Part shown: piece by piece, positions 9,085 to 24,000 of the stretch | Layout: every line of letters starts with the position of its first letter | Numbering within the stretch: position 1 is the first letter of the stretch | Notes under the pieces: model-generated | The model's input: the letters and a program-made list of their open reading frames with translations, nothing else | What the model was told of the DNA's origin: nothing | Databases searched by the model: none | Program-made: the position numbers and the translations under genes | Assembly (NCBI GenBank): GCA_039962805.1 | Contig: JBDVIC010000002.1 | Location: forward strand, 132,263 to 156,262 | DNA: 24,000 bases | Source of the DNA: Balneola sp. | GTDB lineage: Bacteria; Bacteroidota; Rhodothermia; Balneolales; Balneolaceae | Direction of reading: 5' to 3'

Positions 9085-10185
9085 ATGGCAAAAAAGAAAA
9101 AAAGTGATGTAGAATTTGCTCCAAGAGGAATTGGAGACGAAAAATCAGGGGCGGTGCAAAAGGGAGTCGATCTTCCGGATGCTACAAAATCCACACATAA
9201 AGACTTAGGTCTTTCTGGGGCAAAGCTGAAAGCGATGTATGAGCAAATGTATTTGCAACGTCGTTTTGAAGAACGAGCTATGCAACAGTACCAGAAAGGT
9301 AAGTTTGGAGGATTCCTTCACTTATATATCGGACAGGAAGCAGTCTCAACTGGAACTACATTTGCGCTGAATGATGATGATGATATTATAACAGCTTATC
9401 GAGATCATGGTTGGGGATTGTGTAGAGGAATTACACCAAATGAAGGAATGGCTGAGCTTTTTGGTAAAGCAACAGGATGTTCAAGAGGTAAAGGTGGTTC
9501 GATGCATTTCGCTAAAGCTGAAAATCACTTTTGGGGTGGTTATGGTATTGTAGGTGGGCACATTCCTATTGGTGGAGGACTTGCTTTCGCTAATAAATAT
9601 GACCAAAACGGCCGCATTTCTACTTGTTTCTTTGGTGATGGTGCTGTAGATCAAGGAGCATTACACGAGACTTTTAATATTGCACAGTTATGGAAGCTCC
9701 CAGCAATTTTTGTTGTTGAGAATAACGGTTATTCTATGGGAACTGCTGCCAGAAGACATACCGTTGCGGAAATTGTTGACCGCGCGGATGGCTATGGAAT
9801 GAAAAGTGCCGTTATTAATGGAATGGATGTTTTTTCTGTATATGAGAAGATGAAAGAAATTGCAGATGATGTTCGTAAGAATTCTGAGCCTTGGTTTGTT
9901 GAGATTAGAACATACCGTTACAGAGGACATTCAATGTCTGATCCTCAGAAGTACAGAACTAAAGAAGAGTTAGAAGAATATCAGGGTTTTGATCCAATTG
10001 AGCGATTGAAAAACTACATATTAGAAAATGACATTGCTAAAGAAGCTGCTTTAACGAAGATTGAAGAGAAGGTAGATCAAGAAGTGTTGGATGCCGTTGA
10101 ATTTGCGGACAAGTCTGACTTCCCGAAAGAAGAAGAACTCTACGAAGATATGTTTGTAGAAGATGAACCATACTTCCACACCTAA
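9085..10185 (+). CDS. pdhA: pyruvate dehydrogenase E1 component, alpha subunit
   Basis: TPP-dependent E1-alpha motifs: YRDHG, GKGGSMH, FFGDGAVDQGALHETFNIAQLWKLPAIFVVENNGYSMGT, YRYRGHSMSDP. First gene of an E1a-E1b-E2 operon. Confidence 0.92.
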   Translation: MAKKKKSDVEFAPRGIGDEKSGAVQKGVDLPDATKSTHKDLGLSGAKLKAMYEQMYLQRRFEERAMQQYQKGKFGGFLHLYIGQEAVSTGTTFALNDDDDIITAYRDHGWGLCRGITPNEGMAELFGKATGCSRGKGGSMHFAKAENHFWGGYGIVGGHIPIGGGLAFANKYDQNGRISTCFFGDGAVDQGALHETFNIAQLWKLPAIFVVENNGYSMGTAARRHTVAEIVDRADGYGMKSAVINGMDVFSVYEKMKEIADDVRKNSEPWFVEIRTYRYRGHSMSDPQKYRTKEELEEYQGFDPIERLKNYILENDIAKEAALTKIEEKVDQEVLDAVEFADKSDFPKEEELYEDMFVEDEPYFHT

Positions 10186-10208
10186 AAAGAATATCAAAGA
10201 ATAGAATA

Positions 10209-11192
10209 ATGGCTGAATTACAATTTAGAGAAGCAATTAAAGCTGCCATCGATGAAGAAATGGCAAAAGACGAGAAAGTACTTGTAATGGGTGAAGAAGT
10301 TGCTGAATACAACGGCGCTTACAAAACCACAGAAGGACTTCTGGACAAATATGGTTATAAAAGAGTGATCGACACACCAATTTCAGAACTTGGCTTTGCC
10401 GGTATTGGAGTAGGTGCTGCTATGAATGGGTTACGACCAATTGTTGAATTTATGACCTTTAATTTTGCAGTATTAGCAGCTGATCAGATCATAAATCACG
10501 CTTCTAAAGTTAAATACATGACGGGTGGACAGATTAGTTGTCCAATAGTTTTTAGAGGTCCAAATGCTTCTGCAGGACAGCTAGGAGCTACACATTCTGT
10601 AGCTTATGATTCCATGTATGCTCACTTTCCTGGTCTTAAAGTTATTTACACTTCAGAGCCTGGCGATGCAAAAGGATTACTTAAATCGGCAATTCGTGAT
10701 GACAATCCGGTTCTATTTATGGAATCAGAGCAAATGTACGGTTTAAAAGGTGACGTACCCGATGACGAGGACTACATCATTCCGATTGGGAAAGGTAAGA
10801 TAAAAAGAGAAGGTAGCGATGTTACTTTAGTTGCTCATGGTAAAATGTATCACTTAGCTGTAAAAGCTGCAGAGCAATTAGCTAAAGATGGTGTTGAATG
10901 TGAGATCATCGATCCAAGAACAGTTAAGCCATTAGATCTTCCTTTAATTATTGAGTCGATCAAAAAGACAAACCGTTGTGTACTTTTGGATGAAGCACAT
11001 CCTTTTGGTGGACTAGCAGCGGAAGTTGGATTCTTAATTCAGCGTGAAGCTTTCGATTATTTAGACGCTCCGGTACAGCGTGTTACCTTACCGGATGTAT
11101 GTGCACCGTTCGCTAAAAATCTATTCGATTTATGGTACCCATCTGTTAAGCAAGTGGTTGATGCCGTTAATCAAGTTACCTACAGAAATTAA
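10209..11192 (+). CDS. pdhB: pyruvate dehydrogenase E1 component, beta subunit
   Basis: 327 aa. Transketolase-like pyrimidine-binding and C-terminal domains (VIDTPISELGFAGIGVGAAMNGLRPIVEFMTFNF, NPVLFMESE). Starts 23 nt after pdhA. Confidence 0.92.
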   Translation: MAELQFREAIKAAIDEEMAKDEKVLVMGEEVAEYNGAYKTTEGLLDKYGYKRVIDTPISELGFAGIGVGAAMNGLRPIVEFMTFNFAVLAADQIINHASKVKYMTGGQISCPIVFRGPNASAGQLGATHSVAYDSMYAHFPGLKVIYTSEPGDAKGLLKSAIRDDNPVLFMESEQMYGLKGDVPDDEDYIIPIGKGKIKREGSDVTLVAHGKMYHLAVKAAEQLAKDGVECEIIDPRTVKPLDLPLIIESIKKTNRCVLLDEAHPFGGLAAEVGFLIQREAFDYLDAPVQRVTLPDVCAPFAKNLFDLWYPSVKQVVDAVNQVTYRN

Positions 11193-11217
11193 TAAAACTC
11201 ACTAATAAGACGAAATT

Positions 11218-12483
11218 ATGGCTATTAAGATAGAAATGCCGAAGCTGAGCGACACTATGGAAGAAGGAGTGATCGCAAAATGGAATGTTAAAGAAGGTGA
11301 TAAAATTTCTGCGGGAGATATTATTGCTGAGGTGGAAACAGATAAAGCAACTATGGATGTAGAAGCTTTTGATGATGGAACACTCCTTAAAATTTTTCCT
11401 GCTGAAGGCGATGCAGTTCCACTAGGTGGATTAATTGCTGTTATTGGTGAAGAAGGAGAAGATATTTCAGATATCATTGATGGAGCAGGTGGTAGTTCTT
11501 CCTCATCTTCAGAAGATTCTTCAAAGGAAGAGAAAACTGAGGAAAAATCTGATTCCAAATCAGAAGAGGAAGAAAAGACAGCTTCTGATAATGAGAAAAA
11601 AGAAAGTACTTCTTCTTCAGATGATGGAAGAGTAAAAGCATCTCCATTAGCAAAGAAAATGGCTGAAGACAAAGGAATTGATATTTCTTCAGTAAAAGGA
11701 TCAGGTCCTGAAGGTCGTATTGTTAAAAAGGATATCGAGGACTTTAAAGCAGATGGAAAAGCAGCTAAATCGAGCACTTCATCTACTCAGAGTTACCAGA
11801 GTTTAGAAAGTAAAGAAGTGAAAGTTTCTCAAATGAGAAAAGTAATAGCTCGTCGACTTTCTGAAAGTAAATTTACGAATCCACATTTTTATGAAACTAT
11901 CGACATTGACATGAAGGCTGCATTTGCTGCTCGATCTTCAATGAATGAAGCAAATGATGTAAAGATAAGCTTCAACGATATTGTTGTGAAGGCTTGTGCT
12001 ATCGCTCTAACGCGTCATCAAGCAATAAACAGCTCTTGGCATGATGATGTAATTAAAGAGCATGGTGACGTTCATGTGGCTGTTGCAGTTGCAATCGATG
12101 AAGGTTTAATGACCCCTGTAATTAATCATACTGACAAAAAAGGCTTAGCTGAAATTTCTGCAGAAACCAGAGAGTTAGCGGGTTTAGCTAGAGATAGAAA
12201 ATTACAGCCGGAACAAATGGAAGGAAGTACTTTTACGATTTCCAATTTAGGAATGTTCGGAATAGAAGATTTTACTGCTATCATTAATCCACCTAATGCT
12301 TGTATTTTAGCTGTTGGTGCGATCAGAGATGTGCCTGTAATTGAGAACGGTGAAGTTGTTCCTGGCAAGAGAATGAAGGTTACTTTATCAAGCGACCATA
12401 GAGTTGTTGATGGAGCAAAAGCTGCACAGTTCTTGAATACGGTGAAAAATCTTCTTGAAAATCCTCTTTCTATGTTATTATAA
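11218..12483 (+). CDS. pdhC: dihydrolipoamide acetyltransferase (PDH E2)
   Basis: Lipoyl domain with the ETDKATMDVEA lipoyl-Lys motif, subunit-binding domain ASPLAKKMAEDKGIDISSVKGSGPEGRIVKKDIE, and catalytic domain with DHRVVDGA. Confidence 0.92.
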   Translation: MAIKIEMPKLSDTMEEGVIAKWNVKEGDKISAGDIIAEVETDKATMDVEAFDDGTLLKIFPAEGDAVPLGGLIAVIGEEGEDISDIIDGAGGSSSSSSEDSSKEEKTEEKSDSKSEEEEKTASDNEKKESTSSSDDGRVKASPLAKKMAEDKGIDISSVKGSGPEGRIVKKDIEDFKADGKAAKSSTSSTQSYQSLESKEVKVSQMRKVIARRLSESKFTNPHFYETIDIDMKAAFAARSSMNEANDVKISFNDIVVKACAIALTRHQAINSSWHDDVIKEHGDVHVAVAVAIDEGLMTPVINHTDKKGLAEISAETRELAGLARDRKLQPEQMEGSTFTISNLGMFGIEDFTAIINPPNACILAVGAIRDVPVIENGEVVPGKRMKVTLSSDHRVVDGAKAAQFLNTVKNLLENPLSMLL

Positions 12484-12511
12484 GCTAACTAGAAAAAATT
12501 ATTTAAGTAAA

Positions 12512-12543
12512 AGCTCTGATAAATCATCAGGGCTTTTTTTTTT
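12512..12543 (+). terminator. rho-independent terminator between the convergent pdh operon and the MotB-like gene
   Basis: Stem agctctgat / atcagggct (one G-T wobble), loop aaatc, then a run of 9-10 T. On the other strand only a short U-tract follows, so it mainly terminates the + strand operon. Confidence 0.65.
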
Positions 12544-12548
12544 GAGGC

Positions 12549-14258
12549 TTATTTAACTCGCTCGATAAGATAAATGATAGAGCTGAGGTCGGAGCTATCA
12601 CGGCTAAAAGTATTGTATAAGGATAGTATTTCTTCCCAATTAGAAAATGGTCGAGATACTAAATAATACCTGTTATTATCATATAATTTGATGCTACTCT
12701 CCAGACCCATTTCAGCTTTTATTCTTTGGGCGAGTATATCTGCATCGTTTCTATTTGAAAATGATGCTATTTGGAGTTGATATAAAAAAGTGTACTCAGA
12801 TACAGATTCAGGATCATACTTAATAAAAGCATTATTAAGCCCATCAAAACTCTTAATTTCTTGTAGTCTCTGTTCTATCCTCCTTCTACTAGAAATGGGC
12901 TTTGTAAGCACAGAATAAGCTTGGAGTGACATCTGGTTAATCTCAGCATCTATATCAAAATCAGTAGCTATCGTTTCTTTAAAATTAAGAGCATTTTGTT
13001 CATTTTGGAAAAAGCCCAACTGAATTTGATAAGTTATAGGTAAGGGACGTTTAGATGTATTTTCGTAGCATTGCTGAATTACCCCAGTAACTAAATCCTC
13101 ATCTACTTTGCTAATTATATCTTCCTGTATACTTAAAATGTCAGAAAAAGAGCCTTTGCTAGCCGTCCGAACGGAAAACAAACGATTATTATAGGTGATA
13201 TCAAAAGTGTAACCGGTTTGACGCTCAGCTTCATCTGCAGCATTTAGGCTTTGTATAAAAGATTCAAAGTTCCCCAACTGAACTGCATAGGAACATCCGG
13301 CTGCATCTGTATCAACTTTTCTAGGAGTAGTTGTTGATGTGTTCTCTGTATTTTGAGGTGTATTTACAGGTTGAGTTACAGAAGCGCTGGTATTCTCATC
13401 ATCTGAAAACTCAGGATCGGAATTGGTTGGTTCATTCTCAGTATCATTTTCATCAACTTCAGCGGCAATATTCTCAACTATGTTTTCAAGAATAGCAGAA
13501 CTATCAGTATTGATCTCTGATTCATTGGATAAAAGTACAGAATCTGCTCCTGCAACTGATTCCGGGTTGGAATAATATAAACGCAAGACTACGCGTCTAT
13601 TCTCATCCTTATTAGCCGGCATTGGATTTCCCTGATCATCGAAATTAACTAATGGACGTGAGTCAGCATAGCCAGAAGCTTTTAATCGTTTTTGAGGAAG
13701 CCCCATTTCGCTAAAATAACGAACAATATTAGAAGCTCTGGAAGTAGATAATTCCCAATTTGATGGAAATGAGGAGGAGGAAATAGGAACGTTGTCTGTA
13801 TGTCCTTCTACATCAATTTCGAAATCATTATATTCAATGAGTTGAAAAGCAGCCAATACCCGATTAAGTATTTGCGTTGCATCGTCCTGTAATTGAGCAC
13901 TTCCCGAATTGTAAAGATCATCACTTTTAAACCTTATTCTTACATCGTTAAGCTCTCTAAATATCTCCAATTGCCCCGCATCAATTTCCGGTTTTAATAG
14001 AATTTCGAGTTCTTCTTTTATTTTTTCTATAGGGGTAGTGATAAACTCTGATTGGTCATCAGATGATTTGAATAAATCCGAAACAGAGAATGATTCTCCA
14101 TTATTCAATTCTGAAAATGAAAGTAAAATCACAAGAAAACCAAGAAGTATAGTAATTATATCAAGATAACTAACCTGCCAACTGTCATCATCTTCCGGTT
14201 CCATTTCCTGTTTAGGAAATAGTGAGTTCTTTTTGCTATTTACGTGATCTGAATCCAA
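12549..14258 (-). CDS. MotB-like stator protein: TM with conserved Asp, OmpA-type peptidoglycan-binding domain, three C-terminal SPOR-like repeats
   Basis: 569 aa, TTG start 13 nt after the MotA-like stop. SWQVSYLDIITILLGFLVILLSF matches the MotB pattern W-x-[VT]-[ST]-Y-x-D-h-h-T-h-L at the cytoplasmic end of the TM (Asp33, codon 14160-14162). The OmpA-like core is EGHTDNVPI...SNWELSTSRASNIVRYF...ASGYADSRPL...NRRVVL. An acidic low-complexity linker follows. Then come three repeats with the SPOR pattern Y-x-[VIL]-Q-[LI]-[GA]-x-F...A, e.g. YQLQIASFSNRNDADILAQRIK...YYLVSRPFSNWEE. Confidence 0.85.
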   Translation of the reverse strand: MDSDHVNSKKNSLFPKQEMEPEDDDSWQVSYLDIITILLGFLVILLSFSELNNGESFSVSDLFKSSDDQSEFITTPIEKIKEELEILLKPEIDAGQLEIFRELNDVRIRFKSDDLYNSGSAQLQDDATQILNRVLAAFQLIEYNDFEIDVEGHTDNVPISSSSFPSNWELSTSRASNIVRYFSEMGLPQKRLKASGYADSRPLVNFDDQGNPMPANKDENRRVVLRLYYSNPESVAGADSVLLSNESEINTDSSAILENIVENIAAEVDENDTENEPTNSDPEFSDDENTSASVTQPVNTPQNTENTSTTTPRKVDTDAAGCSYAVQLGNFESFIQSLNAADEAERQTGYTFDITYNNRLFSVRTASKGSFSDILSIQEDIISKVDEDLVTGVIQQCYENTSKRPLPITYQIQLGFFQNEQNALNFKETIATDFDIDAEINQMSLQAYSVLTKPISSRRRIEQRLQEIKSFDGLNNAFIKYDPESVSEYTFLYQLQIASFSNRNDADILAQRIKAEMGLESSIKLYDNNRYYLVSRPFSNWEEILSLYNTFSRDSSDLSSIIYLIERVK

Positions 14259-14271
14259 CTATACTATCTGC

Positions 14272-15069
14272 CTAAAACTGTTGACTTGTTCGGTGCATAT
14301 GTGCTTTTAGCTTGTCATATATCTGTAGGGAAGACTTTTGTTGTTGAATCAGAAGTATACCCTCTAGAATTAATTTCTCTCTGAAGAACTGAAGAGAGGC
14401 AATGTTATTCATTTTCTTTGCCATAGGTACGAAAATGAAATTCCCAATAAGAATTCCATAAAGGGTGGTCATTAATGCCGCAGCTAACCCAGTTAATAAA
14501 GAATCCATTTCGTTAAATCCTGAAAGAAGAACAATAAGCCCAAACAAAGTCCCCAACATGCCAAATACAGGAGCTGTTTTTCCCATACTTGCTATAATTT
14601 GGTTGATCTGTTGTTGCCTAGTATAAGTTTCCTGGATGTTTATTTCGGCAAGTTCACGAAGCTCTTCTGTAGAATAATTTGTATCCAAAATTGAGAACAA
14701 ATACCCTTCAAAACGGTTGCTATATTCTTCACTTAGTTCTGAAACTGCTTTTATTTTATCAGCTCGTATTCTTTTTTGCCATTCAAGAATCTTTTCAATG
14801 TCTTGCTCTAATAAGCTATCATCAATATTGCTATGAGAAAAGAGGCGAGTGCTTTCTCCAAGAGCTTTAATTACTTTTTTGAATGGGAAACTTATAAATA
14901 CACTAGCTGAAATTCCGCCAAATACAATAGCGAGACTTGGTAAATTCAAGAACTCATATTTAGACGGTACTATATTATATTGAGCGAAGCCTGTCACTAA
15001 TAATGCCCCCCACACTAAGATGATTAAGGAGAGTAAGAAACTAAGTATATTTAAAAATGAAGTACGCAT
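14272..15069 (-). CDS. MotA/PomA-like proton-channel stator protein (MotA_ExbB family, 4 TM)
   Basis: 265 aa. Two N-terminal TMs, a ~100-aa charged cytoplasmic loop, then TAPVFGMLGTLFGLIVLL and LAAALMTTLYGILIGNFIFVPMAKKM, which match the MotA/ExbB channel core including both conserved Pro positions. The 4-TM topology fits MotA rather than 3-TM ExbB/TolQ. Confidence 0.85.
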   Translation of the reverse strand: MRTSFLNILSFLLSLIILVWGALLVTGFAQYNIVPSKYEFLNLPSLAIVFGGISASVFISFPFKKVIKALGESTRLFSHSNIDDSLLEQDIEKILEWQKRIRADKIKAVSELSEEYSNRFEGYLFSILDTNYSTEELRELAEINIQETYTRQQQINQIIASMGKTAPVFGMLGTLFGLIVLLSGFNEMDSLLTGLAAALMTTLYGILIGNFIFVPMAKKMNNIASLQFFREKLILEGILLIQQQKSSLQIYDKLKAHMHRTSQQF

Positions 15070-15078
15070 ATATTAGTT

Positions 15079-15588
15079 TTAATTAGGTTTTCTGTCTGGG
15101 AATTCATCAATCAGGCCTTGTCTTTTTAATTCTTCAACAATTAAGGGGGAAGGAGGAATGGGTAAATCTTTATCTAGATCGAGGGCTTGTCTCCAATATG
15201 TAACAAAATTTTCTATTGAACCTAATCCTAAATAAATACTGCCTTTCAACGCTAAGATATCTGCCGTTTGTTTAATGCTTGCAGCTACATTTATTAAGGC
15301 AAGGGCTTCTTGAAATTCATTGTTATAGAATTTTTGTTGAGCAGAGATGTAAAGTGAAGTTATTCTATTAGCTTGTATTTGATGGGTTTTATAGAGCTCA
15401 TCTTTATACAACTGCTCTAATGAGTCTCTACGGGCTTCTTCTTTTAGAACCAAAGGATCTACCGTACTTGTATCTGCCTGGATGGTATCACTGGTTTCCG
15501 GTGAGGCAGGAAGTGAATTATCCATAGCTTCTTTAGAACTTCCACAACCTGTTACAAATGTAAGAGAAAGCCCAAAAAGCATTATCAA
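15079..15588 (-). CDS. TPR-like lipoprotein
   Basis: 169 aa. Short signal sequence ending in lipobox FVTG|C. The start is TTG 15588 or ATG 15582. The C-terminal half is helical-repeat/TPR-like (FYNNEFQEALALINVAASI...ALKGSIYLGLGSIENFVTYWRQALDLD) and paralogous to the C-terminus of the 997-aa OM protein. Confidence 0.6.
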   Translation of the reverse strand: MIMLFGLSLTFVTGCGSSKEAMDNSLPASPETSDTIQADTSTVDPLVLKEEARRDSLEQLYKDELYKTHQIQANRITSLYISAQQKFYNNEFQEALALINVAASIKQTADILALKGSIYLGLGSIENFVTYWRQALDLDKDLPIPPSPLIVEELKRQGLIDEFPDRKPN

Positions 15589-15610
15589 AGCTTTATTCGA
15601 TATGTAGAAA

Positions 15611-17443
15611 TTAGTCTTGATCTTGCTTACTCAATTTTAAGGATTCTCTTAGTGAACTCACTAAAATCATTTTTGCTTTTCCTGTGTTTTCCTGCTCGCC
15701 ATCCAATTCCTCTAGTTCTAAGCGGATAAGTTGTTGCTCTCGCTTTGGTCTACCTGTTAATATTTTTTCTTTGGATATGTTATCAAGTCCCACTAAAGCT
15801 TCTAACAATGTAGATGTATCGATAGATTCGATTCCATTTTTTATTACTTCTTCATCAAGCTCAGGAATCTGGTCAATAGTAAAGAATTCTCTTTCAAGAA
15901 TATCACCAATAGGAGAACCGGTAGACTTTAACTGTTCTATATATTGCTTTTGTTCATCAACTGGTAAGTTTTCAAGAATTGGAAGGATATTTTCAACTCC
16001 ATAATCCTGTTGCTGTACATTATCTCTTACTTTAACCGCTTTCTCAAACAGGTTACCAGAAATAAGGCTTTGCTCCTTGTATGAAACGGTATGAAGAGTA
16101 GACATTTTGAGCATTATTTCTGCAGCTCTGGAGCGTTCAAAAGAGTTTAGAATAGAAGCTCCTTTTTCTTGTGGTAAATAGTCAAGGATTAAAGCTGCAC
16201 TTACATTATTCTCAGTTTTAATAAGCTCAGAAATCAAATTATCCGGTAAGTGAGTTAAGAACTTAAACAAACCAAGCTTAGCATGTTTCTTGGTAGACTT
16301 AGCATCCGTTTCTTCATCTTCTATGATTGAATTAAAATATTTAGCTGCTCTATATTTTTCATCAATCGACATTGCCTCTAAGTTAGTAATAGCATTAGCT
16401 ATTATGGCATATTTTTCTTCATCAAGATGATTATGAATCAGTTTAAGTGAGCTTTGATCAATAGCAGAAATGACTTCAGCAACATTCTTAGGACCATTTT
16501 TAGGATCGCTTTCAATCCAAAATTCAAATACCAGTGCTACTTCTTGTGGGTATTTGAAGAAGTTCTCAGAAACTAATTCAAATTCTGTTGCAATATCACG
16601 AGACTTCTCTTTACTGCTTCCATGAAAAGACATATTGCTGTCAGGGTTTAGGCTCCCTTCAACAGTTATATCACTTTTAATATTATCTCTTTGCGACTTT
16701 ACACTGGCTTGTTCTTTTGGTTTTCTGAAATAGCCCACGACAAGCAAGCCAACTAAAAAGACTCCCATAAGAATTATTTCTACGGTATAGTCTTTAAAAG
16801 AGGAAAGAAGGCTTTTAGGCTCGGGGTCTTCTAAAGTAATTACGGATGTAGGCTTGAAACTAGGATCAGGAATGGCAAGCTGAGTAATGTTTATCACATC
16901 TCCCCGAGCTAAATCAACTTTAGCTGCAAAACCGGTTACACGTCGCATAAAATCTAAATCGGTATCAGAAAGAGATGTATCGGCATAAACATTAACTGCC
17001 AAACTATTAAGTTTCAAACTTTTTACGGTGTTCCTGCTCAACACTGCTTCCGGTGATTGAGAAGCAGGTTGATTATTTTGAAGGTTTTCCTCAGGAAGGA
17101 AGGGTAGACCCGGCATAAACGTGTTTTGAGGTCTTCTGTTTACTACTTGATTATCAGTGCTTTGAAAAGTTTCTTCAACGAATTCTGCATCAATGTTCAC
17201 ATCAACAAAAAACTTTTTCCTATCAAAGTGATTGGATAATATTTGAATGATTTGAGAATCGTAGGCTTGTTCTAGAGATGCAATTTGAAGATCACCAGAT
17301 TGAGTTGAAGCATTTGACTGGGCAAAAGTATCACTAGGTATTACACAGAGTAATAACAGAGCTACTAGTAGATTTCTTAATGAAGAATAATTTCTCACGA
17401 CTTGTTTAATCAACATAAATATTTCGGACAACCTAAAAATCAT
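15611..17443 (-). CDS. membrane-anchored FliG-like rotor protein with a periplasmic FliF/YscJ-like (ring-building-motif-like) domain
   Basis: 610 aa. Signal peptide/TM1 (LLVALLLLCVIPSDTFA|Q), ~175-aa periplasmic part, TM at aa 219-238 followed by basic RKPKEQ (cytoplasmic side). aa ~295-605 resemble the FliG N/M/C armadillo domains. ENNVSAALILDYLPQEKGASILNSFERSRAAEIMLKMSTLHTVS compares with the FliG middle EHPQtiAliLsyL-p-qAa-vL--lp-e-q-ev--Ria-m--vs. FFTIDQIPELDEEVIKNGIESIDTSTLLEALVGLDNISKEKILTGRPKREQQLIRLELEEL compares with FliG_C F-F-dl--ld-r-iq-ll-evd---L--ALkga-----ekf--nmS-Ra---l--dl. Alternative start ATG at 17416. Confidence 0.72.
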   Translation of the reverse strand: MIFRLSEIFMLIKQVVRNYSSLRNLLVALLLLCVIPSDTFAQSNASTQSGDLQIASLEQAYDSQIIQILSNHFDRKKFFVDVNIDAEFVEETFQSTDNQVVNRRPQNTFMPGLPFLPEENLQNNQPASQSPEAVLSRNTVKSLKLNSLAVNVYADTSLSDTDLDFMRRVTGFAAKVDLARGDVINITQLAIPDPSFKPTSVITLEDPEPKSLLSSFKDYTVEIILMGVFLVGLLVVGYFRKPKEQASVKSQRDNIKSDITVEGSLNPDSNMSFHGSSKEKSRDIATEFELVSENFFKYPQEVALVFEFWIESDPKNGPKNVAEVISAIDQSSLKLIHNHLDEEKYAIIANAITNLEAMSIDEKYRAAKYFNSIIEDEETDAKSTKKHAKLGLFKFLTHLPDNLISELIKTENNVSAALILDYLPQEKGASILNSFERSRAAEIMLKMSTLHTVSYKEQSLISGNLFEKAVKVRDNVQQQDYGVENILPILENLPVDEQKQYIEQLKSTGSPIGDILEREFFTIDQIPELDEEVIKNGIESIDTSTLLEALVGLDNISKEKILTGRPKREQQLIRLELEELDGEQENTGKAKMILVSSLRESLKLSKQDQD

Positions 17444-17451
17444 TGATTCTC

Positions 17452-20445
17452 TTAATCCTCTGGTTGAGTTTTAATTATTTGATCCAATACTTCTATCTCA
17501 GGAATAACGATTTCAGGATTAAATTCGGCAGCCAAATCCCAATTCTTTTGTGCTTCAGCTTTATTACCATTTAAATAATTCAGACTTCCTTTTAAGGCAT
17601 ACCCTTGAGCGGTTTCAAACAACGCCAACGATTCGTTAACAAAAGTTAAAGCTCTATCAATATTTCTATTGTAAAAAGCCGTTTGTGCTTGAATAATTAA
17701 ACGTAGGGCATTATCTACATCCTTATCTAGCTTTTCTTCAAGTTCAATTATTTCTGCACTTTCTTTTACGCTAGCTATTATAGATTCAGTTGAAATAGTA
17801 TTTACTTGTTCTGGTTCAAAATCTTCTGGTACGATCATGAATTCTAAGCCTTCAACAAAATCACCATCCGCTAAAGCTTTGATATCAAAACTAACTTTAC
17901 TCGGTAAAGATTTTGAGTTTAATATGTTCAGTTGGGAAGGGTCAATGGATAGTTCATAATTTCCGGGGGGAATTTCATAAGCATAAAAGCTACCGTCTGA
18001 GAAGGTCCGTAATTCCTGAACAGTATTTTGATCTATATTATTTAGAAATAATCTGATCCCTCCAATACCATCTTCTGTTTCTGCGTCAAAACGACGATTT
18101 ACAACACCTTCAATTATACCAGTGGAATAAAACGGTACATCAATTGGTTTAAAATAATTTGGATCAGAGATCACCCCAAATTTTTCTTGTTTAGGTACAA
18201 GCAGGGGATTCTGAATGGCACCTTTATTGATCTCCATATTATATTTGAAATAAGGCTGCATTTGCGTGATATAGGTAATGCCATTTTTCGAGGTTGTAGA
18301 CCCCGTTCTATCTAAACGTATAGCATTATTTTTGATCAATTCGTCGCCCTCTGAGAATTTCTCATCTCCATCATAATCCACGAATAATCTAACAGCCGCT
18401 GCAGAACGACCAACTTGATTCCGGCTAGTTAGGAAAAGATTATTGTTATTGGCATCGTAACCTATAGATCCACGAACGGTATTTGTAACTGAACTAGAGC
18501 TTCTGATATTTCTATAACGAGAATTGACTCTGGTTTTATTAAAGTCGATTACAATGCTGGCTGAAATGGAGTTATAATTAAATCTAAAATTTCTTGCTAC
18601 GTTAAGTTGAATATTTCCCTTTTTGAAGACTTTTCGAGAAAGAAAAAACTGAATGTCATCCAGCTCACTAGAAGTTGGTAGAAAAGAGATCTCTCCACGT
18701 GCAAACATTCCATGAAAGACCTTAGGAGTGGTATTGGTTCTTGGGAAATTGTATGTAAGTGAAAAATTAGCGGAAGCATTTTCACTCAGCTCAAAAAAAT
18801 CATTTGTCGTATTCGAGTTGCTAAAGCCAGTTCTAACATTAAATCGCCCTAGCCTGGTACTTAGATCTACTCTATATCTTGAAATAGGACGAGGTTCACG
18901 TTCAATTCGAGAACCAAATAACCGAATGTTTAGAGGGATATTACCAATCAAAAAAGGATAGAATACACTTCCCTGTAATTCTTGATCATAATTTCCTGAG
19001 TTATAAATTCTATTTTGTGCAAAGTAATTAGTATACGCTAAACTAATACTGGCAGCATTTGCTAAGATTGTACTACCACGAGTTCGAACAAAAGCATCAT
19101 TAGCAATTTCTGTACTAAATAAATACCTATTAAATAAACGAGCTGAAAGACCGCCTGTAAAAGTAGGTAAGGAGGTATTTAAAGACTCAAAATATTCAGC
19201 TCCGGCCCTTGCAGTGAGCCAATTTGATATACCAATTACAGTATTGGCCTGGGCTGTTAATCCACGCTCCTGAGTGCCTATAAGTGGGTTTTCGAGTTCG
19301 CCAAGATCTATATTGTAGTTGATTTCACCTGGAGGAAGAAAAGAAAAAGGAACCTGTATTCTCTTGGAACGTTCTACAACTTGACCTGTAGGACCAAATA
19401 TTTTTATATCGTATGCTGAAGTACCGTAAGTAAGGGGGGTGATAAAACGGTAATTGCCTGTTTCATCAGTTTCTTGAAAATCAGCTAGCGTATTATTGAT
19501 GTAAAGCTCAACTTCTGAGCGAGAAAATGTATTTCCTTGGATCACAAATTCATCGTATAGTCTTCTTGGCTCAAGAGGCTGGTTGGTAATTTTTATACCT
19601 CGATAAGGATTGTTTAATATACCGGATGAGCTTGTTTGTCCTGCGGTAACACTACTAATAACAGGACTATCTGTAATTGCATACCTCCAACGTAAATTAC
19701 TTGTAGTAACGTTCGAAGCATCAGCTGAATATGCGCCATTTATAGCTCCCTGAACATCTCCACCGAGAGCTTCTGCTCCAATAGCTGTATTAAATAGAAA
19801 GATACTAGATTCATCACTGGTGATAGCAGATAAGTTATAATCTAAAAATCCTAAACCAAGAATTTTGCGATCTCTACCGTACTCGACCGGGTAATTTAAA
19901 TTAAGCGTTCGGTCATTGCGTTGGATTTGCTGGCGTCTATTTTGACGAATAAGCTTTTGAACTACCGGGATGTTTTTATCAGTTTCAAGAAGAAGTGCTA
20001 GATTGTTGAAATCGACATCAAAATCTAAACCAAATAACTCATTAAAAATGGAAATTTCTAGGTAATAGTCTAAATCTTTGATCAGAAAATCATCGCTGGT
20101 TAACGAGAGGTTTTTGTTACCGGATGAAGCTTGAAAAGTACTTAAATTTATTTGATAAGGTGTTTCCTCTTCTAAGAAATTACCATATAGAACCACACCT
20201 GCATTAAGCCTTGTGTTATGATCTATTTCAAGCAGTTGAAATACTTCTTTGTAAGGAATGTAGAATGTATCATTTTTATAATATGCTATTACCACAGAAT
20301 TAATGGCACTTCTATATGAAAATGAAAGATACACTTCTATTTCATCGTCGCTTGTAGATTGAGCCTTTAGAGAACTAAAAGCCCCATAACACACAAGCAA
20401 ACAAAGAAAGTTGATAGAAATATATTTCCATTTTCTTGAGGTCAC
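17452..20445 (-). CDS. large outer-membrane beta-barrel protein in the usher position (usher-like assembly pore candidate) with CarboxypepD_reg-like domains and a C-terminal TPR-like module
   Basis: 997 aa. GTG start overlaps the upstream stop (GTGA at 20442-20445). Signal peptide ...SSLKA|Q. The long central region has alternating beta-strand patterns rich in Y/F/N/R/G. There are two carboxypeptidase-regulatory-like beta-sandwich signatures (TDETGNYRFITPLTYGTSAYDIKIF; RTFSDGSFYAYEIPPGNYELSI). A TPR-like tail occupies aa ~914-985. Homology to PapC/FimD ushers is NOT established by eye. Confidence 0.5.
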   Translation of the reverse strand: MTSRKWKYISINFLCLLVCYGAFSSLKAQSTSDDEIEVYLSFSYRSAINSVVIAYYKNDTFYIPYKEVFQLLEIDHNTRLNAGVVLYGNFLEEETPYQINLSTFQASSGNKNLSLTSDDFLIKDLDYYLEISIFNELFGLDFDVDFNNLALLLETDKNIPVVQKLIRQNRRQQIQRNDRTLNLNYPVEYGRDRKILGLGFLDYNLSAITSDESSIFLFNTAIGAEALGGDVQGAINGAYSADASNVTTSNLRWRYAITDSPVISSVTAGQTSSSGILNNPYRGIKITNQPLEPRRLYDEFVIQGNTFSRSEVELYINNTLADFQETDETGNYRFITPLTYGTSAYDIKIFGPTGQVVERSKRIQVPFSFLPPGEINYNIDLGELENPLIGTQERGLTAQANTVIGISNWLTARAGAEYFESLNTSLPTFTGGLSARLFNRYLFSTEIANDAFVRTRGSTILANAASISLAYTNYFAQNRIYNSGNYDQELQGSVFYPFLIGNIPLNIRLFGSRIEREPRPISRYRVDLSTRLGRFNVRTGFSNSNTTNDFFELSENASANFSLTYNFPRTNTTPKVFHGMFARGEISFLPTSSELDDIQFFLSRKVFKKGNIQLNVARNFRFNYNSISASIVIDFNKTRVNSRYRNIRSSSSVTNTVRGSIGYDANNNNLFLTSRNQVGRSAAAVRLFVDYDGDEKFSEGDELIKNNAIRLDRTGSTTSKNGITYITQMQPYFKYNMEINKGAIQNPLLVPKQEKFGVISDPNYFKPIDVPFYSTGIIEGVVNRRFDAETEDGIGGIRLFLNNIDQNTVQELRTFSDGSFYAYEIPPGNYELSIDPSQLNILNSKSLPSKVSFDIKALADGDFVEGLEFMIVPEDFEPEQVNTISTESIIASVKESAEIIELEEKLDKDVDNALRLIIQAQTAFYNRNIDRALTFVNESLALFETAQGYALKGSLNYLNGNKAEAQKNWDLAAEFNPEIVIPEIEVLDQIIKTQPED

Positions 20446-21272
20446 CGTATAGTGAATTGGGTTGAGGTTGATACGGGCTCCATTTTAACAATATTTTCGC
20501 TAGAAACGTCGCTACGTTGTGTTTCAAAAATAACTTCAGCAGTATAAGTGCCTGCCGATAATCCTTGAATATCGACTTCTTGACTATGTGTACCATCAAA
20601 ATATATGGTAGTAGAACGGAAAGAGGATTTAACTACATTATTGTTAGCATCTTTCACATTAACAGTAATAGATCCAAGAAAAGGGGAGTTACCGCCTCGT
20701 TCTAGTTTGGTTCTTACTTCTACAAAACCATCATCAGTAAGCAGAGCCTCTGTTCCGAGTACATTAATATCAGTGGTTACAGTACCTTTTTTATAGTAAA
20801 GTCCAGTTATTTGCTCAATGGTTATGCCCACTCTTGCAGATACAGAATTGTCATTCTGTAATTCTACCGGCGGAGTTTGAGCAGTAGATCTGGTTTTAAT
20901 TCTTGCCCAGTAGGTACCATCATTTAGATTATTGGGAGGAGCAACGCGCAAACGTACTACTTGTCGTTGACCGGGAGTGAGAGTAAAGTTCCTTGGAAAA
21001 GACTGGACCCAAGTATGAGCAGAATGTTCCTCTTGTTGTTCCATGTCGTCATACACAATACTCCTACTTCCTTCCTCATCAGTTGCTGTGTATGCAAATA
21101 TAAACTCGATAGACACTTCCTGTGGTTCGTTTGACCCATTTAAAACCAAGTAGGTTCCAAAGCGAGTATTTTCTTCTATAAAGATGTTTGTTGGAGAGAT
21201 GGTGATTTGCCCTAATATGTTGGTAGAGCATAACATAAACACCCAAATGACAAGCGATAATGATTTTTTCAT
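20442..21272 (-). CDS. periplasmic PapD-like fimbrial chaperone candidate
   Basis: 276 aa, signal peptide ...NILG|Q. Beta-rich, two-domain size. ITISPTNIFIEENTRFGTYLVLNGSNEPQEV and SFPRNFTLTPGQRQVVRLRV resemble the PapD_N patterns (-P--f-l-pg--q-vRl-). It sits between the subunit genes and the usher-position gene. Confidence 0.6.
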   Translation of the reverse strand: MKKSLSLVIWVFMLCSTNILGQITISPTNIFIEENTRFGTYLVLNGSNEPQEVSIEFIFAYTATDEEGSRSIVYDDMEQQEEHSAHTWVQSFPRNFTLTPGQRQVVRLRVAPPNNLNDGTYWARIKTRSTAQTPPVELQNDNSVSARVGITIEQITGLYYKKGTVTTDINVLGTEALLTDDGFVEVRTKLERGGNSPFLGSITVNVKDANNNVVKSSFRSTTIYFDGTHSQEVDIQGLSAGTYTAEVIFETQRSDVSSENIVKMEPVSTSTQFTIR

Positions 21273-21357
21273 TTTCTGTAGATTAATTATATGAACGCTT
21301 TAAATTAACAAATTCGGGTGCAAATTATAATTGAATTAATGAGGGTACTTTTTACAT

Positions 21358-21390
21358 AAAAAAAAAGTCTCATTATTGAATAATGAGACT
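21358..21390 (-). terminator. rho-independent terminator/attenuator immediately after the 4th (putative major) subunit gene
   Basis: On the minus strand, stem agtctcatta / taatgagact (21366-21375 and 21381-21390), 5-nt loop, followed by 8 U (A-run at 21358-21365 on the + strand). It lies 19 nt after the stop at 21409. Confidence 0.6.
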
Positions 21391-21408
21391 TTTGTAAGAA
21401 ACTTAATC

Positions 21409-21921
21409 CTAGTCGTAAGTGATAGTAAAAGTCATTACGTTAGATGTTCCAAGAGAAGTACTGTACGCACCAGTTTGTGAAGGAGCAGCTAATTCACCTC
21501 CAACATCCAAAGTAATATCACCACCAGTAAGAGTTACAGTACCACCATCAGTTACTTCTGAGCCACCTAACCAAACAGAAGGAGTAAAAACGATAGGATC
21601 ATCATCTTCAGTTCTATTAAGAGTAGCGGTAGTCCAGTCAACAACAACGTCAACACCAGAAGTACCAACGATCTGTAAAGCACCAGCAGTTGCTCCATCA
21701 CCTAAGTTTGCTTCTGTCGCATCATCATTAGAATTAGCATCAATAATTGAGTTAGCGCCAGTTTGGATAGTTCCTAGAGCAACATCAGTAGGTGTTAATA
21801 CAAGTGCGGCTTCAACCTGAGCTGTTACAGCAACGTTAGCTGTTTCCTGAGCAAGAATGTTAGCAGAACCAACAAGGATCATCAAAGCGAAAGCAGTAAA
21901 TAATTTGTTTAAATTTTTCAT
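21409..21921 (-). CDS. secreted DUF4402/spore-coat-U-like fibre subunit, putative major subunit
   Basis: The ORF track starts at TTG 21960. ATG 21921 gives a canonical signal peptide, MKNLNKLFTAFALMILVGSANILA|Q. The mature protein is rich in T/G/A/V/D. It ends ...GGELAAPSQTGAYSTSLGTSNVMTFTITYD, matching the family C-terminal pattern G-x-Y...h-x-h-x-h-x-Y-[DE] at the very C-terminus. It has its own upstream intergenic gap and a downstream terminator. Confidence 0.65.
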   Translation of the reverse strand: MKNLNKLFTAFALMILVGSANILAQETANVAVTAQVEAALVLTPTDVALGTIQTGANSIIDANSNDDATEANLGDGATAGALQIVGTSGVDVVVDWTTATLNRTEDDDPIVFTPSVWLGGSEVTDGGTVTLTGGDITLDVGGELAAPSQTGAYSTSLGTSNVMTFTITYD

Positions 21922-22010
21922 GAGAGTAAATTTTGTTTTTTTGAGTTGTACAAATTTCAAACTTTCTCTGAGATATCACAAGTTAGAGTTTATTAATGAA
22001 GCGGAGTAGC

Positions 22011-22544
22011 TCACTCATAGTCAATAACAAGGCTTAGTTCTCCTTCATAAATACCGTTCGGTACATTCCCTACATCAATGAATCCATATATATAAATAAA
22101 CACCGTTTGCCACTCAAAACGGTCTTTTTGGGCGTTTTCGTTTACTTGGAGGTACATGTTATCACCACCAAAAGGGGTGGCTACATCAGGATTATTAGTG
22201 CCGGAATTGTTGTAAGCGGCCTGAAGATCTATGGGGATAGTTGCTTTTACTGCAGGATTAAGATGTTTTAATATATTTGTTGATTGCAATTCCATGCGAA
22301 GAATCTGGGAATTGATGGCAGTAACCGAAAATATACCCATACTAGGATCACCTAGATTGATATTTTTTGTACCTGAGTTTACAATGATATCACCGAAATT
22401 CAACTCAGATAGCACAGTGGCCTCGAGTTCAGGTTCTAACTCTATTTGTATGTTTATATACTGAGCAGTAGATGAAGTGCATAATAATAGGGAGAAGCAA
22501 AAAGCATAGAGGTAAAAGAGATATGAACAATGCTTCTTAATCAT
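22011..22544 (-). CDS. secreted DUF4402/spore-coat-U-like fibre subunit paralog
   Basis: 177 aa. ATG start overlaps the upstream gene by 8 nt. Signal peptide ...SSTA|Q. LNFGDIIVNSGTKNINL motif. C-terminus YIYGFIDVGNVPNGIYEGELSLVIDYE. Confidence 0.6.
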   Translation of the reverse strand: MIKKHCSYLFYLYAFCFSLLLCTSSTAQYINIQIELEPELEATVLSELNFGDIIVNSGTKNINLGDPSMGIFSVTAINSQILRMELQSTNILKHLNPAVKATIPIDLQAAYNNSGTNNPDVATPFGGDNMYLQVNENAQKDRFEWQTVFIYIYGFIDVGNVPNGIYEGELSLVIDYE

Positions 22545-23133
22545 AAATAATAGTAATGTCTATTTCAGCAGAGTAACTACCAGCATCAACGGTTCCAACA
22601 TTTAAAGATCCATACAAGTATAAGTAAGCAGTCTCATTATAAATTGAGGGATCATATCCATCATAAACCGGGGTAGGAGGTGGAGCGGGCGGCTCACTTG
22701 TTCTATAACGTATAGGGAATTGAGCAGTACCTGAATTAGCTACAACATTGACGATACGTGCTTGAGCTATATTATCACTCCCTCTATTAGCGTAAGCAGC
22801 TTCCAGAGTATAAGGGATACTGCAACTGGGGTCGCTGGTACAAGCAGGGTTTCCATTGAGCAAAAGTTTGCTATCCGCAGTGATAGTTAAAAAAACGTCT
22901 AAATATTTTACCCCGGTAATAGTGATCACTTTTGAGTTTGAGATACCAATATTGTTAGTACCACTACCGGAGATGATGGCGCCAAATTCAAAATCCGCTC
23001 CGGGATTTTGTTCAGCAACAGAAAGCGAATAGTTATAATAATCGCCAAAATCTATTTCTTGGCTGTGTACCGGTCTAATGCTTAATAAAAAGAGAAGGAT
23101 AAAGAGGGAATATGTTAAAGCTGATTTTATCAC
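22537..23133 (-). CDS. secreted DUF4402/spore-coat-U-like fibre subunit paralog with Cys pair and Pro-rich insert
   Basis: 198 aa. GTG start after a 3-nt gap (23134-23136) following the upstream stop. Signal peptide ...PVHS|Q. FEFGAIISGSGTNNIGI motif, CTSDPSC Cys pair, EPPAPPPTPVYDGYDP insert. C-terminus LYLYGSLNVGTVDAGSYSAEIDITIIYD. Confidence 0.6.
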   Translation of the reverse strand: MIKSALTYSLFILLFLLSIRPVHSQEIDFGDYYNYSLSVAEQNPGADFEFGAIISGSGTNNIGISNSKVITITGVKYLDVFLTITADSKLLLNGNPACTSDPSCSIPYTLEAAYANRGSDNIAQARIVNVVANSGTAQFPIRYRTSEPPAPPPTPVYDGYDPSIYNETAYLYLYGSLNVGTVDAGSYSAEIDITIIYD

Positions 23134-23136
23134 TAG

Positions 23137-23640
23137 TTAGATATAATCTATTTCGATTGTAAATTCACCTTCGTAGCTACCAGGCTTAGCTTGTTCCACA
23201 AAAACACGACCACCAACCCATATATAAAAATCTCCATCTGCATTAAAACTGAAACTCCTATTCTCAGCTCCAAGAACCTCAGAAGTCAACTGTTCGTCAA
23301 TATCATTTCCGGTTAGCTGATAAATAACACGAATTAAACCATCACCATTTATTTGGTTTAAGATCTGGTTAGGTTGAAAAGTGATACGAATCTCAGCATT
23401 TGGATTACCTGATGCGATCATATGTCCTGCGTTACCACTAGTAGCAGGAGGGATGAAAATTTCGTTATTAACAGGTTCTAAATTTGCTAACTGAATATTT
23501 TGCACAGTAACCATCTCAATAGCCTGTATAACTGTTGCTTCAATATTGATTTCAGCATTTACAGACCTTGAATTTGTTTGGGCTGTACTATTGATTGAAA
23601 ACACTAAAAATAATGCTGTAAACGAGATTAAGTATTTCAT
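23137..23640 (-). CDS. secreted DUF4402/spore-coat-U-like fibre subunit paralog (first gene of cluster)
   Basis: The ORF track starts at TTG 23673. ATG 23640 gives the signal peptide MKYLISFTALFLVFSINSTA|Q. C-terminus FYIWVGGRVFVEQAKPGSYEGEFTIEIDYI. Confidence 0.6.
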   Translation of the reverse strand: MKYLISFTALFLVFSINSTAQTNSRSVNAEINIEATVIQAIEMVTVQNIQLANLEPVNNEIFIPPATSGNAGHMIASGNPNAEIRITFQPNQILNQINGDGLIRVIYQLTGNDIDEQLTSEVLGAENRSFSFNADGDFYIWVGGRVFVEQAKPGSYEGEFTIEIDYI

Positions 23641-23762
23641 TCGTTGAGCTAATTTTTTCTTTAAATATTGCAATCTAATTGCTTATTAGCCAGTTAGTAT
23701 TTTTTAATAACAACGGATTAGAGCAAGAGTAAATTTCAAATAATAGTTTTAAACTACACTAC

Positions 23763-24000
23763 TTACTTAATTAGTGTAAACTTCTGGGTATAAACGCTAG
23801 AACCTGTAGTAAGTCGATAGAAATAAACCCCACTTGCAAGATTTTGGGCTTCAAAATTTATGTTATACTTCCCAGCAGAGAGGTTTTCATTAATAAGAGT
23901 ACTTACTTTTCTACCTAAGATGTCATAAATAATTAGGCTCACTTTAGATTCTACGTCTAATCCAAATGGAATTGTGGTAGATGGATTAAACGGGTTAGGG
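23763..24000 (-). CDS. 3' end of a gene for a T9SS-secreted protein (Por-secretion C-terminal sorting domain); 5' part lies outside the window
   Basis: My own translation of the minus strand (not in the ORF track because no start is in the window): PNPFNPSTTIPFGLDVESKVSLIIYDILGRKVSTLINENLSAGKYNINFEAQNLASGVYFYRLTTGSSVYTQKFTLIK*. It matches the T9SS CTD pattern NPFNP-T-I-F-L-----v-l-iyDilGr-V--l-------G-------------sGvYfyrl---------K--l-K. Stop codon at 23763-23765. Confidence 0.8.
   Translation of the reverse strand, partial: PNPFNPSTTIPFGLDVESKVSLIIYDILGRKVSTLINENLSAGKYNINFEAQNLASGVYFYRLTTGSSVYTQKFTLIK

Follow-up and report, generated by a model that had tools for sequence, protein, structure and literature searches.

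The window that we analysed, a 24,000-nt stretch of Balneola sp. DNA, contains ten minus-strand ORFs (P0001–P0010) spanning positions 12549-23673, whose products range from small pilin-like subunits to the parts of a flagellar-type motor (Table 1). P0010 and P0009 are separated by 3 nt, P0009 and P0008 overlap by 8 nt (22537-22544), P0006 and P0005 share a 4-nt GTGA stop/start overlap (20442-20445), and the remaining junctions from P0005 down to P0001 measure 8, 22, 9 and 13 nt. Wider gaps flank P0007: about 89 nt towards P0008, counted from Met14 (21921), the likely start within an ORF that reaches a TTG at 21960, and 136 nt towards P0006, where a strong hairpin resembling an intrinsic terminator separates the chaperone gene from those of the subunits. 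Every measured position and junction size agrees with an earlier, sequence-only reading of this DNA. For P0010, the Atlas entry begins at residue 12 of the ORF, so its start is probably 23640 rather than the TTG at 23673. A convergent terminator, between P0001 and the plus-strand gene for pyruvate dehydrogenase E2, marks the 3′ end of the operon.

At the other end, the cluster runs on past the edge of the window: 89 nt beyond the P0010 ORF lies a gene on the same strand for a 2499-aa T9SS-CTD adhesin, followed by a gene for a 1195-aa T9SS-CTD protein and then a divergent gene boundary, a continuation that the earlier reading had missed. Pfam identifies Laminin_G_3, Invasin_D3 and Por_Secre_tail on them, and a T9SS adhesin is kept beside the DUF4402 genes across the Balneola loci. 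A search of the genome found SprA of the T9SS; GldM was not found.

Table 1. Features of the cluster, in window coordinates
Feature	Position	Strand	Assignment	Basis or remark
1195-aa T9SS-CTD protein	31387-34974		T9SS-CTD protein	next after the 2499-aa adhesin
2499-aa T9SS-CTD adhesin	23763-31262 (in the window 23763-24000, 3′ end)	-	T9SS-CTD adhesin	ORFs, Pfam
P0010	23137-23640	-	DUF4402 pilin-like subunit 1	ORF to 23673 (TTG)
P0009	22537-23133	-	DUF4402 subunit 2	weak Pfam DUF4402
P0008	22011-22544	-	DUF4402-family subunit 3	homologous to P0009 and P0010
P0007	21409-21921	-	DUF4402-family subunit 4	signal peptide; homologues at all loci
Hairpin	21363-21393	-	intrinsic-terminator-like	14-bp stem, then T-run
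P0006	20442-21272	-	PapD-like periplasmic chaperone	Atlas structure; PapD_N of orthologs
P0005	17452-20445	-	usher with extra C-terminal TPR domain	AF2 model, Foldseek
P0005, residues ~36-673	18427-20445	-	N-terminal domain and 24-strand-type β-barrel	AF2, Foldseek
P0005, residues ~682-873	17827-18402	-	C-terminal β-sandwich domains	CarboxypepD_reg/SdrD_B; model
P0005, residues ~886-997	17452-17790	-	extra all-helical TPR-like domain	BLASTP, tblastn
P0004	15611-17443	-	FliF RBM3/β-collar–FliG fusion	Pfam, VIA, Foldseek
P0003	15079-15588	-	TPR lipoprotein, lipobox VTGC	TPR_8
P0002	14272-15069	-	flagellar-clade MotA, 4 TM	MotA_ExbB; NCBIfam
P0001	12549-14258	-	MotB-like stator subunit	Pfam, NCBIfam
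Terminator	12509-12537	.	convergent terminator	between PDH E2 gene (+) and P0001 (-)

Genes P0010 to P0005 (module A) constitute an archaic chaperone-usher system, and such a module without the motor is common elsewhere in Bacteroidota. P0010 has a signal peptide, matches Pfam DUF4402 (E = 3e-5) and Atlas DUF4402 clusters; DUF4402 is matched by 11 of the 12 members of the subunit family, which share, P0010 included, a conserved C-terminal Gly-x-Tyr ... Tyr motif. Of the earlier description of the subunits as DUF4402/spore-coat-U-like, the first part holds; the SCPU signature (PF05229) was not found. The Atlas structure of P0006 matches a "PapD chaperone" cluster at TM 0.95 and a PapD_N cluster at 0.77, and its orthologs in other Bacteroidota match PapD_N at or above cut-off. 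For the AF2 model of P0005 (pLDDT 81), the best 18 Foldseek matches are all FimD/PapC ushers (E = 2.9e-30 to 5e-15), and its homolog P0222 matches Pfam Usher above cut-off; the identities previously suggested for the chaperone and for the 997-aa outer-membrane protein are thus both borne out. Residues 860-997 of this usher are homologous to the TPR lipoprotein P0003 (BLASTP E = 1e-8), and tblastn detects the P0003-like region in the usher of all loci; relatives of the usher that occur without a motor in other Bacteroidota lack the domain. Sharing of this domain suggests that usher and motor dock physically.

The motor genes (P0004 to P0001, module B) begin with what is, as modelled, a natural fusion of the FliF RBM3/β-collar to full-length FliG. 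P0004 comprises TM1 (residues ~2-40), the RBM3/collar domain (44-192; window 16868-17314), TM2 (212-239; 16727-16810), a linker and FliG (315-609; 15617-16501). Its FliG_N, FliG_M and FliG_C domains exceed the curated Pfam cut-offs, and TIGR00207 fliG matches at E = 5e-15. By VIA, residues 44-192 correspond to the FliF RBM3/collar (6sd1, Z 13.9, rmsd 1.9 over 98; 8z5v, Z 14.1), with rmsd 1.7-2.7 Å over ~100 residues to Salmonella and Vibrio FliF S-ring structures, and residues 315-609 to FliG (8wiw_3, Z 14.7 over 280); Foldseek matches include the S-ring structures 8z4d and 8z4g. Four charged residues of the FliG-C region (R565, R568, E569 and E576) are invariant in 29 homologs, which would fit a conserved stator interface.

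P0002 matches Pfam MotA_ExbB (E = 1.3e-18) and the NCBIfam MotA/MotP/PomA equivalogs at E ~1e-30 to 1e-35, compared with merely 0.002 for TolQ/ExbB, an identity that we rejected on this basis. Its matches include the Na+-type PomA/MotP models; Balneolaceae are marine or halophilic. P0001 carries a transmembrane Asp33 (window ~14160), MotB_plug, an OmpA peptidoglycan-binding domain (residues 116-204) and SPOR domain(s) (493-543) by Pfam, as well as NCBIfam MotD/MotB matches. The sequence-only reading fares well here: its "FliF/FliG-like" label for P0004 was literally right, the FliG assignment survives the profile searches, and MotA and MotB stand. The S-ring-like collar also agrees with its idea of a ring.

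The order of the genes, together with a neighbouring T9SS adhesin, is kept at 13 loci within Balneola and also in g4, g5 and g9, three further genera of Balneolaceae, hence in at least four genera including Balneola, which is far from chance and disposes of the earlier concern that modules A and B might be accidental neighbours. The other concern, that these are displaced copies belonging to a flagellar regulon without its own fliG and motAB, is likewise set aside: FlhA, FliF (PF01514), FliM and flagellin were not found in the genome, and complete flagellar systems coexist with the cluster in g4 and g9. Standalone (type-2) motor modules without a chaperone-usher system occur in Balneolaceae and Fibrobacterota (Fibrobacterales), where the FliF(RBM3)–FliG fusion, a 360-aa protein, the TPR lipoprotein, MotA and MotB follow one another; the fusion–lipoprotein–MotA–MotB order and the conserved lipoprotein unite both types in a cross-phylum family, whereas the type-2 modules have the 360-aa protein in place of chaperone-usher genes and a short MotB without SPOR. 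Their neighbours vary (ECF sigma/TonB-dependent receptor; α2-macroglobulin/PBP1C; rpoBC). The 360-aa protein has a signal peptide and ends, as outer-membrane β-barrels typically do, in an aromatic residue; by Atlas features it resembles LpoB/CsgG/outer-membrane β-barrel clusters. This suggests that an outer-membrane partner is the normal companion of the motor module, and in the Balneolaceae cluster the usher appears to have replaced it.

Like the flagellar motor, the module has a periplasmic FliF RBM3/β-collar domain with a membrane span on either side, the N, M and C domains of FliG, a flagellar-clade MotA, and a MotB with transmembrane Asp, plug and OmpA domain. Unlike it, P0004 lacks RBM1/RBM2 (the M-ring part) and unites FliF and FliG in one chain, P0001 bears the extra SPOR domain, the genome lacks the FliM/FliN switch, the FlhA/FlhB/FliPQR export gate, rod, hook and filament, and the operon is tied to a chaperone-usher pilus rather than to a flagellin filament. 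The predicted combination of a flagellar-clade MotAB stator with a FliF-fused FliG ring also differs from GldLM, AglRQS (Myxococcus), ExbBD-TonB and TolQR-TolA, which share with it a MotA-family pentamer with B subunits, ion flow and an outer-membrane-associated machine; the Balneola system has no GldM, TonB or TolA. With classical and archaic chaperone-usher pili (FimD/PapC, PapD/FimC, σ-fimbriae/Csu type), module A shares the usher's N-terminal domain, β-barrel and C-terminal β-sandwiches, a PapD-like chaperone, several small secreted subunits, the order subunits–chaperone–usher and a terminator behind the subunit genes, but its subunits are DUF4402, a family without a solved structure, its usher has the additional TPR domain, and its operon includes a predicted ion-driven rotary motor. 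We know of no chaperone-usher system that draws on inner-membrane energy. Engineered FliF-FliG fusions of Vibrio alginolyticus form MS/S rings (PMC11481574, 10.1101/2023.02.06.527414), as shown for the constructs behind 8z4d/8z4g; these are single chains like P0004, but are laboratory constructs with full-length FliF within a flagellum, whereas P0004 is natural, has the RBM3/collar only and occurs without a flagellum.

The identities of the components are established from sequence and predicted structure. Building on them, we propose, with somewhat less than even confidence, that an ion-driven rotary motor supplies the mechanical drive for the usher-anchored pilus and, most probably, turns the usher–pilus assembly. 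P0004 would assemble into a membrane ring with an S-ring-like periplasmic collar and cytoplasmic FliG domains as the rotor; the P0002/P0001 stators, anchored to peptidoglycan through the OmpA and SPOR domains of MotB, would turn this ring by ion flow, as flagellar stators act on FliG, and the lipoprotein P0003 would complete the module. The chaperone-usher system (P0005–P0010) would have taken the place of the module's outer-membrane-like partner, the usher acquiring the TPR domain by which it may dock to the motor. We infer this coupling of modules A and B from conserved synteny, tight spacing with overlaps and the common TPR domain. That the fibre rotates, acting as a propeller or a rotating adhesive fibre, we only infer; the co-encoded T9SS adhesins may cooperate with it at the cell surface.

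Several observations weigh against a motor-driven pilus. P0004 represents only the RBM3/collar part of FliF, and rod, hook, L/P-ring bushing and FliM/FliN switch are missing, which leaves torque no evident route across the periplasm to an outer-membrane usher. Chaperone-usher pili assemble without energy input, so no known energy requirement demands a motor. Because the motor module also exists without a chaperone-usher system, its coupling to the usher may be secondary or loose. Indeed, the module could function independently, as an envelope/peptidoglycan mechanosensor or as a rotor for another outer-membrane partner, and be merely co-regulated with the pilus genes. Standalone modules beside different neighbours and the terminator within the operon (21363-21393) keep this rival live; we nonetheless consider it unlikely, given a ten-gene order conserved in at least four genera, the module's own TPR domain on the usher, and the loss here of the 360-aa partner that the usher seems to replace.

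The motor might also serve the pilus without rotating it, ion flow gating the usher or driving a translocation step, or retracting or shedding the pilus, in a TonB/ExbBD-like manner. As a 5:2 ion motor, the stator belongs to a superfamily that includes energisers of outer-membrane proteins, and the added TPR domain of the usher offers a docking site, yet FliG with an S-ring-like FliF is a rotary design and not a TonB-type linear transducer, Pfam and NCBIfam profiles find no TonB- or TolA-like protein among the cluster proteins, and pilus assembly has no need of external energy; the chances of this reading are low. The lack of a TonB/TolA-like protein bears equally on the alternative raised by the sequence-only reading, Ton/Tol-like opening and closing of the usher pore for transport of non-pilin cargo, which accords with a β-barrel partner within a trans-envelope operon but sits poorly with an usher gene that has pilin and chaperone genes of its own on its flanks, and which we find highly improbable. 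In gliding-type motility, as when GldLM moves SprB in Flavobacterium or with Agl–Glt in Myxococcus, the stators might push P0004, or move themselves, and drag usher-anchored pili or T9SS adhesins along the surface. A T9SS (SprA), large adhesins conserved beside the cluster and the two peptidoglycan-binding domains of MotB (SPOR and OmpA) would suit such a mechanism, which is nevertheless improbable in our judgement: the genome search did not find GldM, a rotor of the FliG type speaks for turning about a fixed axis, and gliding has not been reported in Balneolaceae (PMC5167729).

Together, these results place pilus-building machinery and a reduced flagellar motor in one operon of a flagellum-less marine Balneola, and suggest a new kind of motor-driven pilus. 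If the fibre does rotate, it would be a pilus that behaves like a flagellum.

The ten minus-strand ORFs of the cluster (P0001-P0010) lie where the sequence-only reading had placed them, and the junctions it described were borne out: neighboring genes are 3 nt apart at one junction, overlap by 8 nt at 22537-22544 and share a GTGA overlap at 20442-20445, with spacings of 8, 22, 9 and 13 nt after that. The gap before the subunit gene P0007 is about 89 nt, provided that P0007 starts at Met14, and the 136-nt gap was also found as described. True starts are probably the Met codons at 23640 for P0010 (residue 12) and at 21921 for P0007 (residue 14), not an upstream TTG; the Atlas record of P0010 likewise begins at residue 12, window position 23640. 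By analogy with classical chaperone-usher operons, the hairpin in the 136-nt gap may let subunits be made in excess. The window corresponds to contig C2:132263-156262 of a 3.06-Mb genome that is 98.7% complete, and the same-strand cluster runs on beyond the window end (sequence L005) into two genes for T9SS-CTD proteins with homologous C-terminal regions, past which lie divergent plus-strand genes. Two plus-strand ORFs inside the minus-strand operon genes draw no Pfam match and are unlikely to be genuine genes.

Features in and beside the cluster (window positions; L005 is the sequence past the window end)
Feature	Position	Strand	Description
Housekeeping genes	6274-12483	+	upstream; alanyl-tRNA synthetase and pyruvate dehydrogenase E1/E1-like/E2
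Convergent terminator	12509-12537		operon end against the plus-strand pyruvate dehydrogenase E2 gene
Cluster P0001-P0010	12549-23673	-	probable P0010 start at 23640
ORF	15684-16004	+	inside operon genes
P0004 R565, R568, E569, E576	~15917-15890	-	FliG-C region
Hairpin	21363-21393	-	strong, intrinsic-terminator-like; 136-nt gap between subunit genes and chaperone gene
ORF	21419-21820	+	inside operon genes
2499-aa T9SS-CTD adhesin	23763-31262 (L005 526-8025)	-	Laminin_G_3, Invasin_D3, DUF2341, CLSTN_C
1195-aa T9SS-CTD protein	31387-34974 (L005 8150-11737)	-	second past the window end

To define the motor module, we examined its rotor and stator proteins. P0004 matches Pfam FliG_N, FliG_M and FliG_C, all above cut-offs, and its topology comprises a periplasmic domain flanked by two membrane spans and a full helical cytoplasmic region. 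Comparison of its AF2 model with the PDB showed that residues 44-192 correspond to the FliF RBM3/β-collar (S-ring) of the Salmonella and Vibrio MS rings (VIA Z 13.9-14.1, rmsd 1.7-2.7 Å over ~100 residues), a segment also matched by the ring-building motifs of PrgK and EscJ (Z ~9), and that residues 315-609 correspond to full-length FliG of the C ring (Z 14.7 over 280 residues), indicating that P0004 is a natural FliF(RBM3/collar)–FliG fusion. Engineered FliF-FliG fusions have been found to form S/MS rings (PMC11481574). P0004 has the N, M and C domains and the charged torque helix of a FliG rotor, and R565, R568, E569 and E576, invariant across 29 FliFG-fusion homologs, are candidate stator-contact residues. 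The predicted MotA-like protein P0002 proved to be a MotA of the flagellar clade, with NCBIfam MotP/MotA/PomA models matching at E ~1e-30 to 1e-35 versus 0.002 or weaker for TolQ/ExbB. Its MotB-like partner P0001 carries the transmembrane Asp33, a plug, an OmpA peptidoglycan-binding domain with the canonical motif and SPOR domain(s), completing a stator of the flagellar MotA/MotB type.

For the fibre module, Pfam on its own is weak, and structure and homologs decide. The AF2 model of P0005, built from a 30-sequence alignment (pLDDT 81), runs from an N-terminal β-domain through a long β-barrel region to C-terminal β-sandwich domains and an all-helical C-terminal domain, and FimD/PapC ushers take all of the first 18 places in its Foldseek search (E 2.9e-30 to 5e-15, TMt up to 0.64). 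P0005 itself does not match Pfam Usher; its 44%-identical homolog P0222 does, above cut-off (E 2.5e-8). Because a PDB profile search with the usher family (A1) returned no solved-structure hits, the usher identity rests on the predicted structure and the P0222 match. The modeled β-barrel, N-terminal domain and C-terminal domains are those expected of an usher. The additional helical domain at the C-terminus shares homology with the TPR lipoprotein P0003 (BLASTP E 1e-8), and in other loci the P0003 matches are to this part of P0005 only. P0006 itself has no Pfam PapD match; its Atlas model lies nearest to "PapD chaperone" clusters (TM 0.95, and 0.77 to a PapD_N cluster), and PapD_N reaches or exceeds cut-off in its orthologs at three loci in other genomes (L047, L049 and L050), identifying it as a PapD-like two-domain periplasmic chaperone. 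P0007-P0010 are four signal-peptide DUF4402 subunits sharing a C-terminal Gly-x-Tyr…Tyr motif; the spore-coat-U-like SCPU signature (PF05229) also claimed for them was not found, leaving DUF4402 only, and a PDB search with the subunit profile (A3) gave no solved-structure match. The assignment of this module to the chaperone-usher systems stands, on structure and homologs. Separately, we observed that SPOR, which binds denuded (septal) peptidoglycan, recurs at residues 493-543 of P0001 and in some usher homologs, with usher-SPOR fusions of 1170-1550 aa in Gracilimonas, Rhodohalobacter, Fodinibius and Aliifodinibius (among P0173-P0234).

We then asked how the two modules are distributed. Gene order, including the adjoining T9SS adhesin, is conserved at 13 Balneola loci and in three other Balneolaceae genera, with an adhesin copy next to the DUF4402 genes in the Balneola loci; chance adjacency of the modules was rejected because this order is kept across four genera. 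The window's genome holds a single FliG-like gene and two further MotA_ExbB genes elsewhere, and a search of it found no FlhA, FliF (PF01514), FliM or flagellin. Displaced flagellar copies were rejected as well, both on that result and because two of the three other genera have a full flagellar gene complement (FlhA and flagellin) in addition to the cluster. In a sample of 401 genomes from across Bacteroidota, close P0004 homologs were restricted to Balneolaceae and a single sister family. A form of the fibre module that has no motor genes, built of DUF4402 arrays, a chaperone matching PapD_N above cut-off and an 800-880-aa usher, is found elsewhere in the phylum.

A full-library search recovered ~150 further, more distant full-length P0004 homologs (20-28% identity), one of them in a Fibrobacterales MAG. 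These distant homologs form a second, standalone module type in Balneolaceae (L029-L031) and Fibrobacterota (L052, Fibrobacterales), consisting of a FliFG fusion, a 360/368-aa protein, a TPR lipoprotein, MotA and a short MotB without SPOR, in varying neighborhoods (ECF sigma/histidine kinase with a TonB-dependent receptor; α2-macroglobulin with PBP1C; rpoBC). The 360-aa protein carries a signal peptide, and its C-terminus is outer-membrane-like, with an aromatic residue; Atlas feature similarity offers leads only, to LpoB, CsgG and outer-membrane β-barrel clusters. The presence of this protein suggests that the motor module is a trans-envelope unit shared between phyla, as a rule with an outer-membrane-side partner of its own. 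In the Balneolaceae cluster with chaperone-usher genes, the 360-aa partner has been lost, and its place would be occupied by the usher, which now bears the module's TPR domain.

Chaperone-usher pili are textbook surface fibres assembled without energy input; they are not known to be motor-coupled, and flagellar rotors are so far known only within flagella. The cluster shares the FliG rotor and MotA/MotB stator with the flagellum, and the usher, PapD-like chaperone and small subunits with chaperone-usher pili. However, whereas the FliF MS ring comprises RBM1-RBM3 and the β-collar, P0004 retains RBM3/collar only, in a periplasmic domain of ~150 residues, and the window's genome lacks the FliM/FliN switch, type III export gate and rod/hook/filament of a flagellum. 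The cluster therefore has parts of both systems yet belongs to neither, there being no FliF RBM1/2, switch or export gate on one side and no known motor coupling on the other. Literature searches on DUF4402/PF14352, usher with FliG/MotB, and FliG-like or non-flagellar MotA proteins found no description of such a system.

With the components identified, synteny and the common TPR domain suggest that motor and pilus may be coupled. In the account we tentatively favor, though we hold it at somewhat less than an even chance, peptidoglycan-anchored MotA/MotB stators powered by PMF or Na+ would turn a ring of the FliF-RBM3/FliG protein, and this motion would pass mechanically to the usher-anchored DUF4402 pilus, with fibre rotation the most likely mode. 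Complex prediction for P0004 residues 40-205 with usher TPR residues 880-997 scored 0.21 against a mark of 0.32, a value that by the tool's own standard argues neither way on binding. It is unlikely that the motor instead energizes usher gating or pilus retraction, and we give the same low weight to an independent motor module that is only co-regulated with the pilus genes.

Lateral transport of pili or T9SS adhesins in the manner of gliding motility, for which the T9SS translocon protein SprA encoded in this genome speaks, is similarly improbable in our estimate; the TIGR GldM model found nothing in the genome, and its controls gave no signal either. Least likely of all is Ton-like energizing of transport, given that the stator is of the flagellar clade and not ExbB/TolQ-type, and that the cluster has no TonB/TolA domain to act as the periplasmic transducer of TonB/Tol energizers.

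If the cluster does encode a motor-driven pilus, it would represent a new kind of machine, combining a flagellar rotor-stator core with a different outer-membrane export system. The flagellar motor core would then be exportable as a module, alone or with other partners, with standalone copies across phyla. An old question would also become testable, namely how few parts, and which, suffice for ion flow to rotate a ring that spans the envelope. The finding also bears on a puzzle in this genus: Balneola vulgaris has been recorded as a motile, flagellated species (PMC5167729, Table 1), but flagellar assembly genes are missing from Balneola, including the B. vulgaris genome (PMC9909488). FlhA and flagellin were missing in every genome of the window's genus that we sampled, and no B. 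vulgaris-named protein appeared among the MotA or FliG-fusion homologs, most of which are nameless. If B. vulgaris carries the cluster, its reported "flagella" might be these pili. That the Balneola chaperone-usher pilus, spun by the FliF-RBM3–FliG/MotA/MotB motor, serves as a flagellum-like propeller in bacteria lacking flagellar genes is a long shot; if true, the spun pilus could account for the flagellated, motile description of B. vulgaris.
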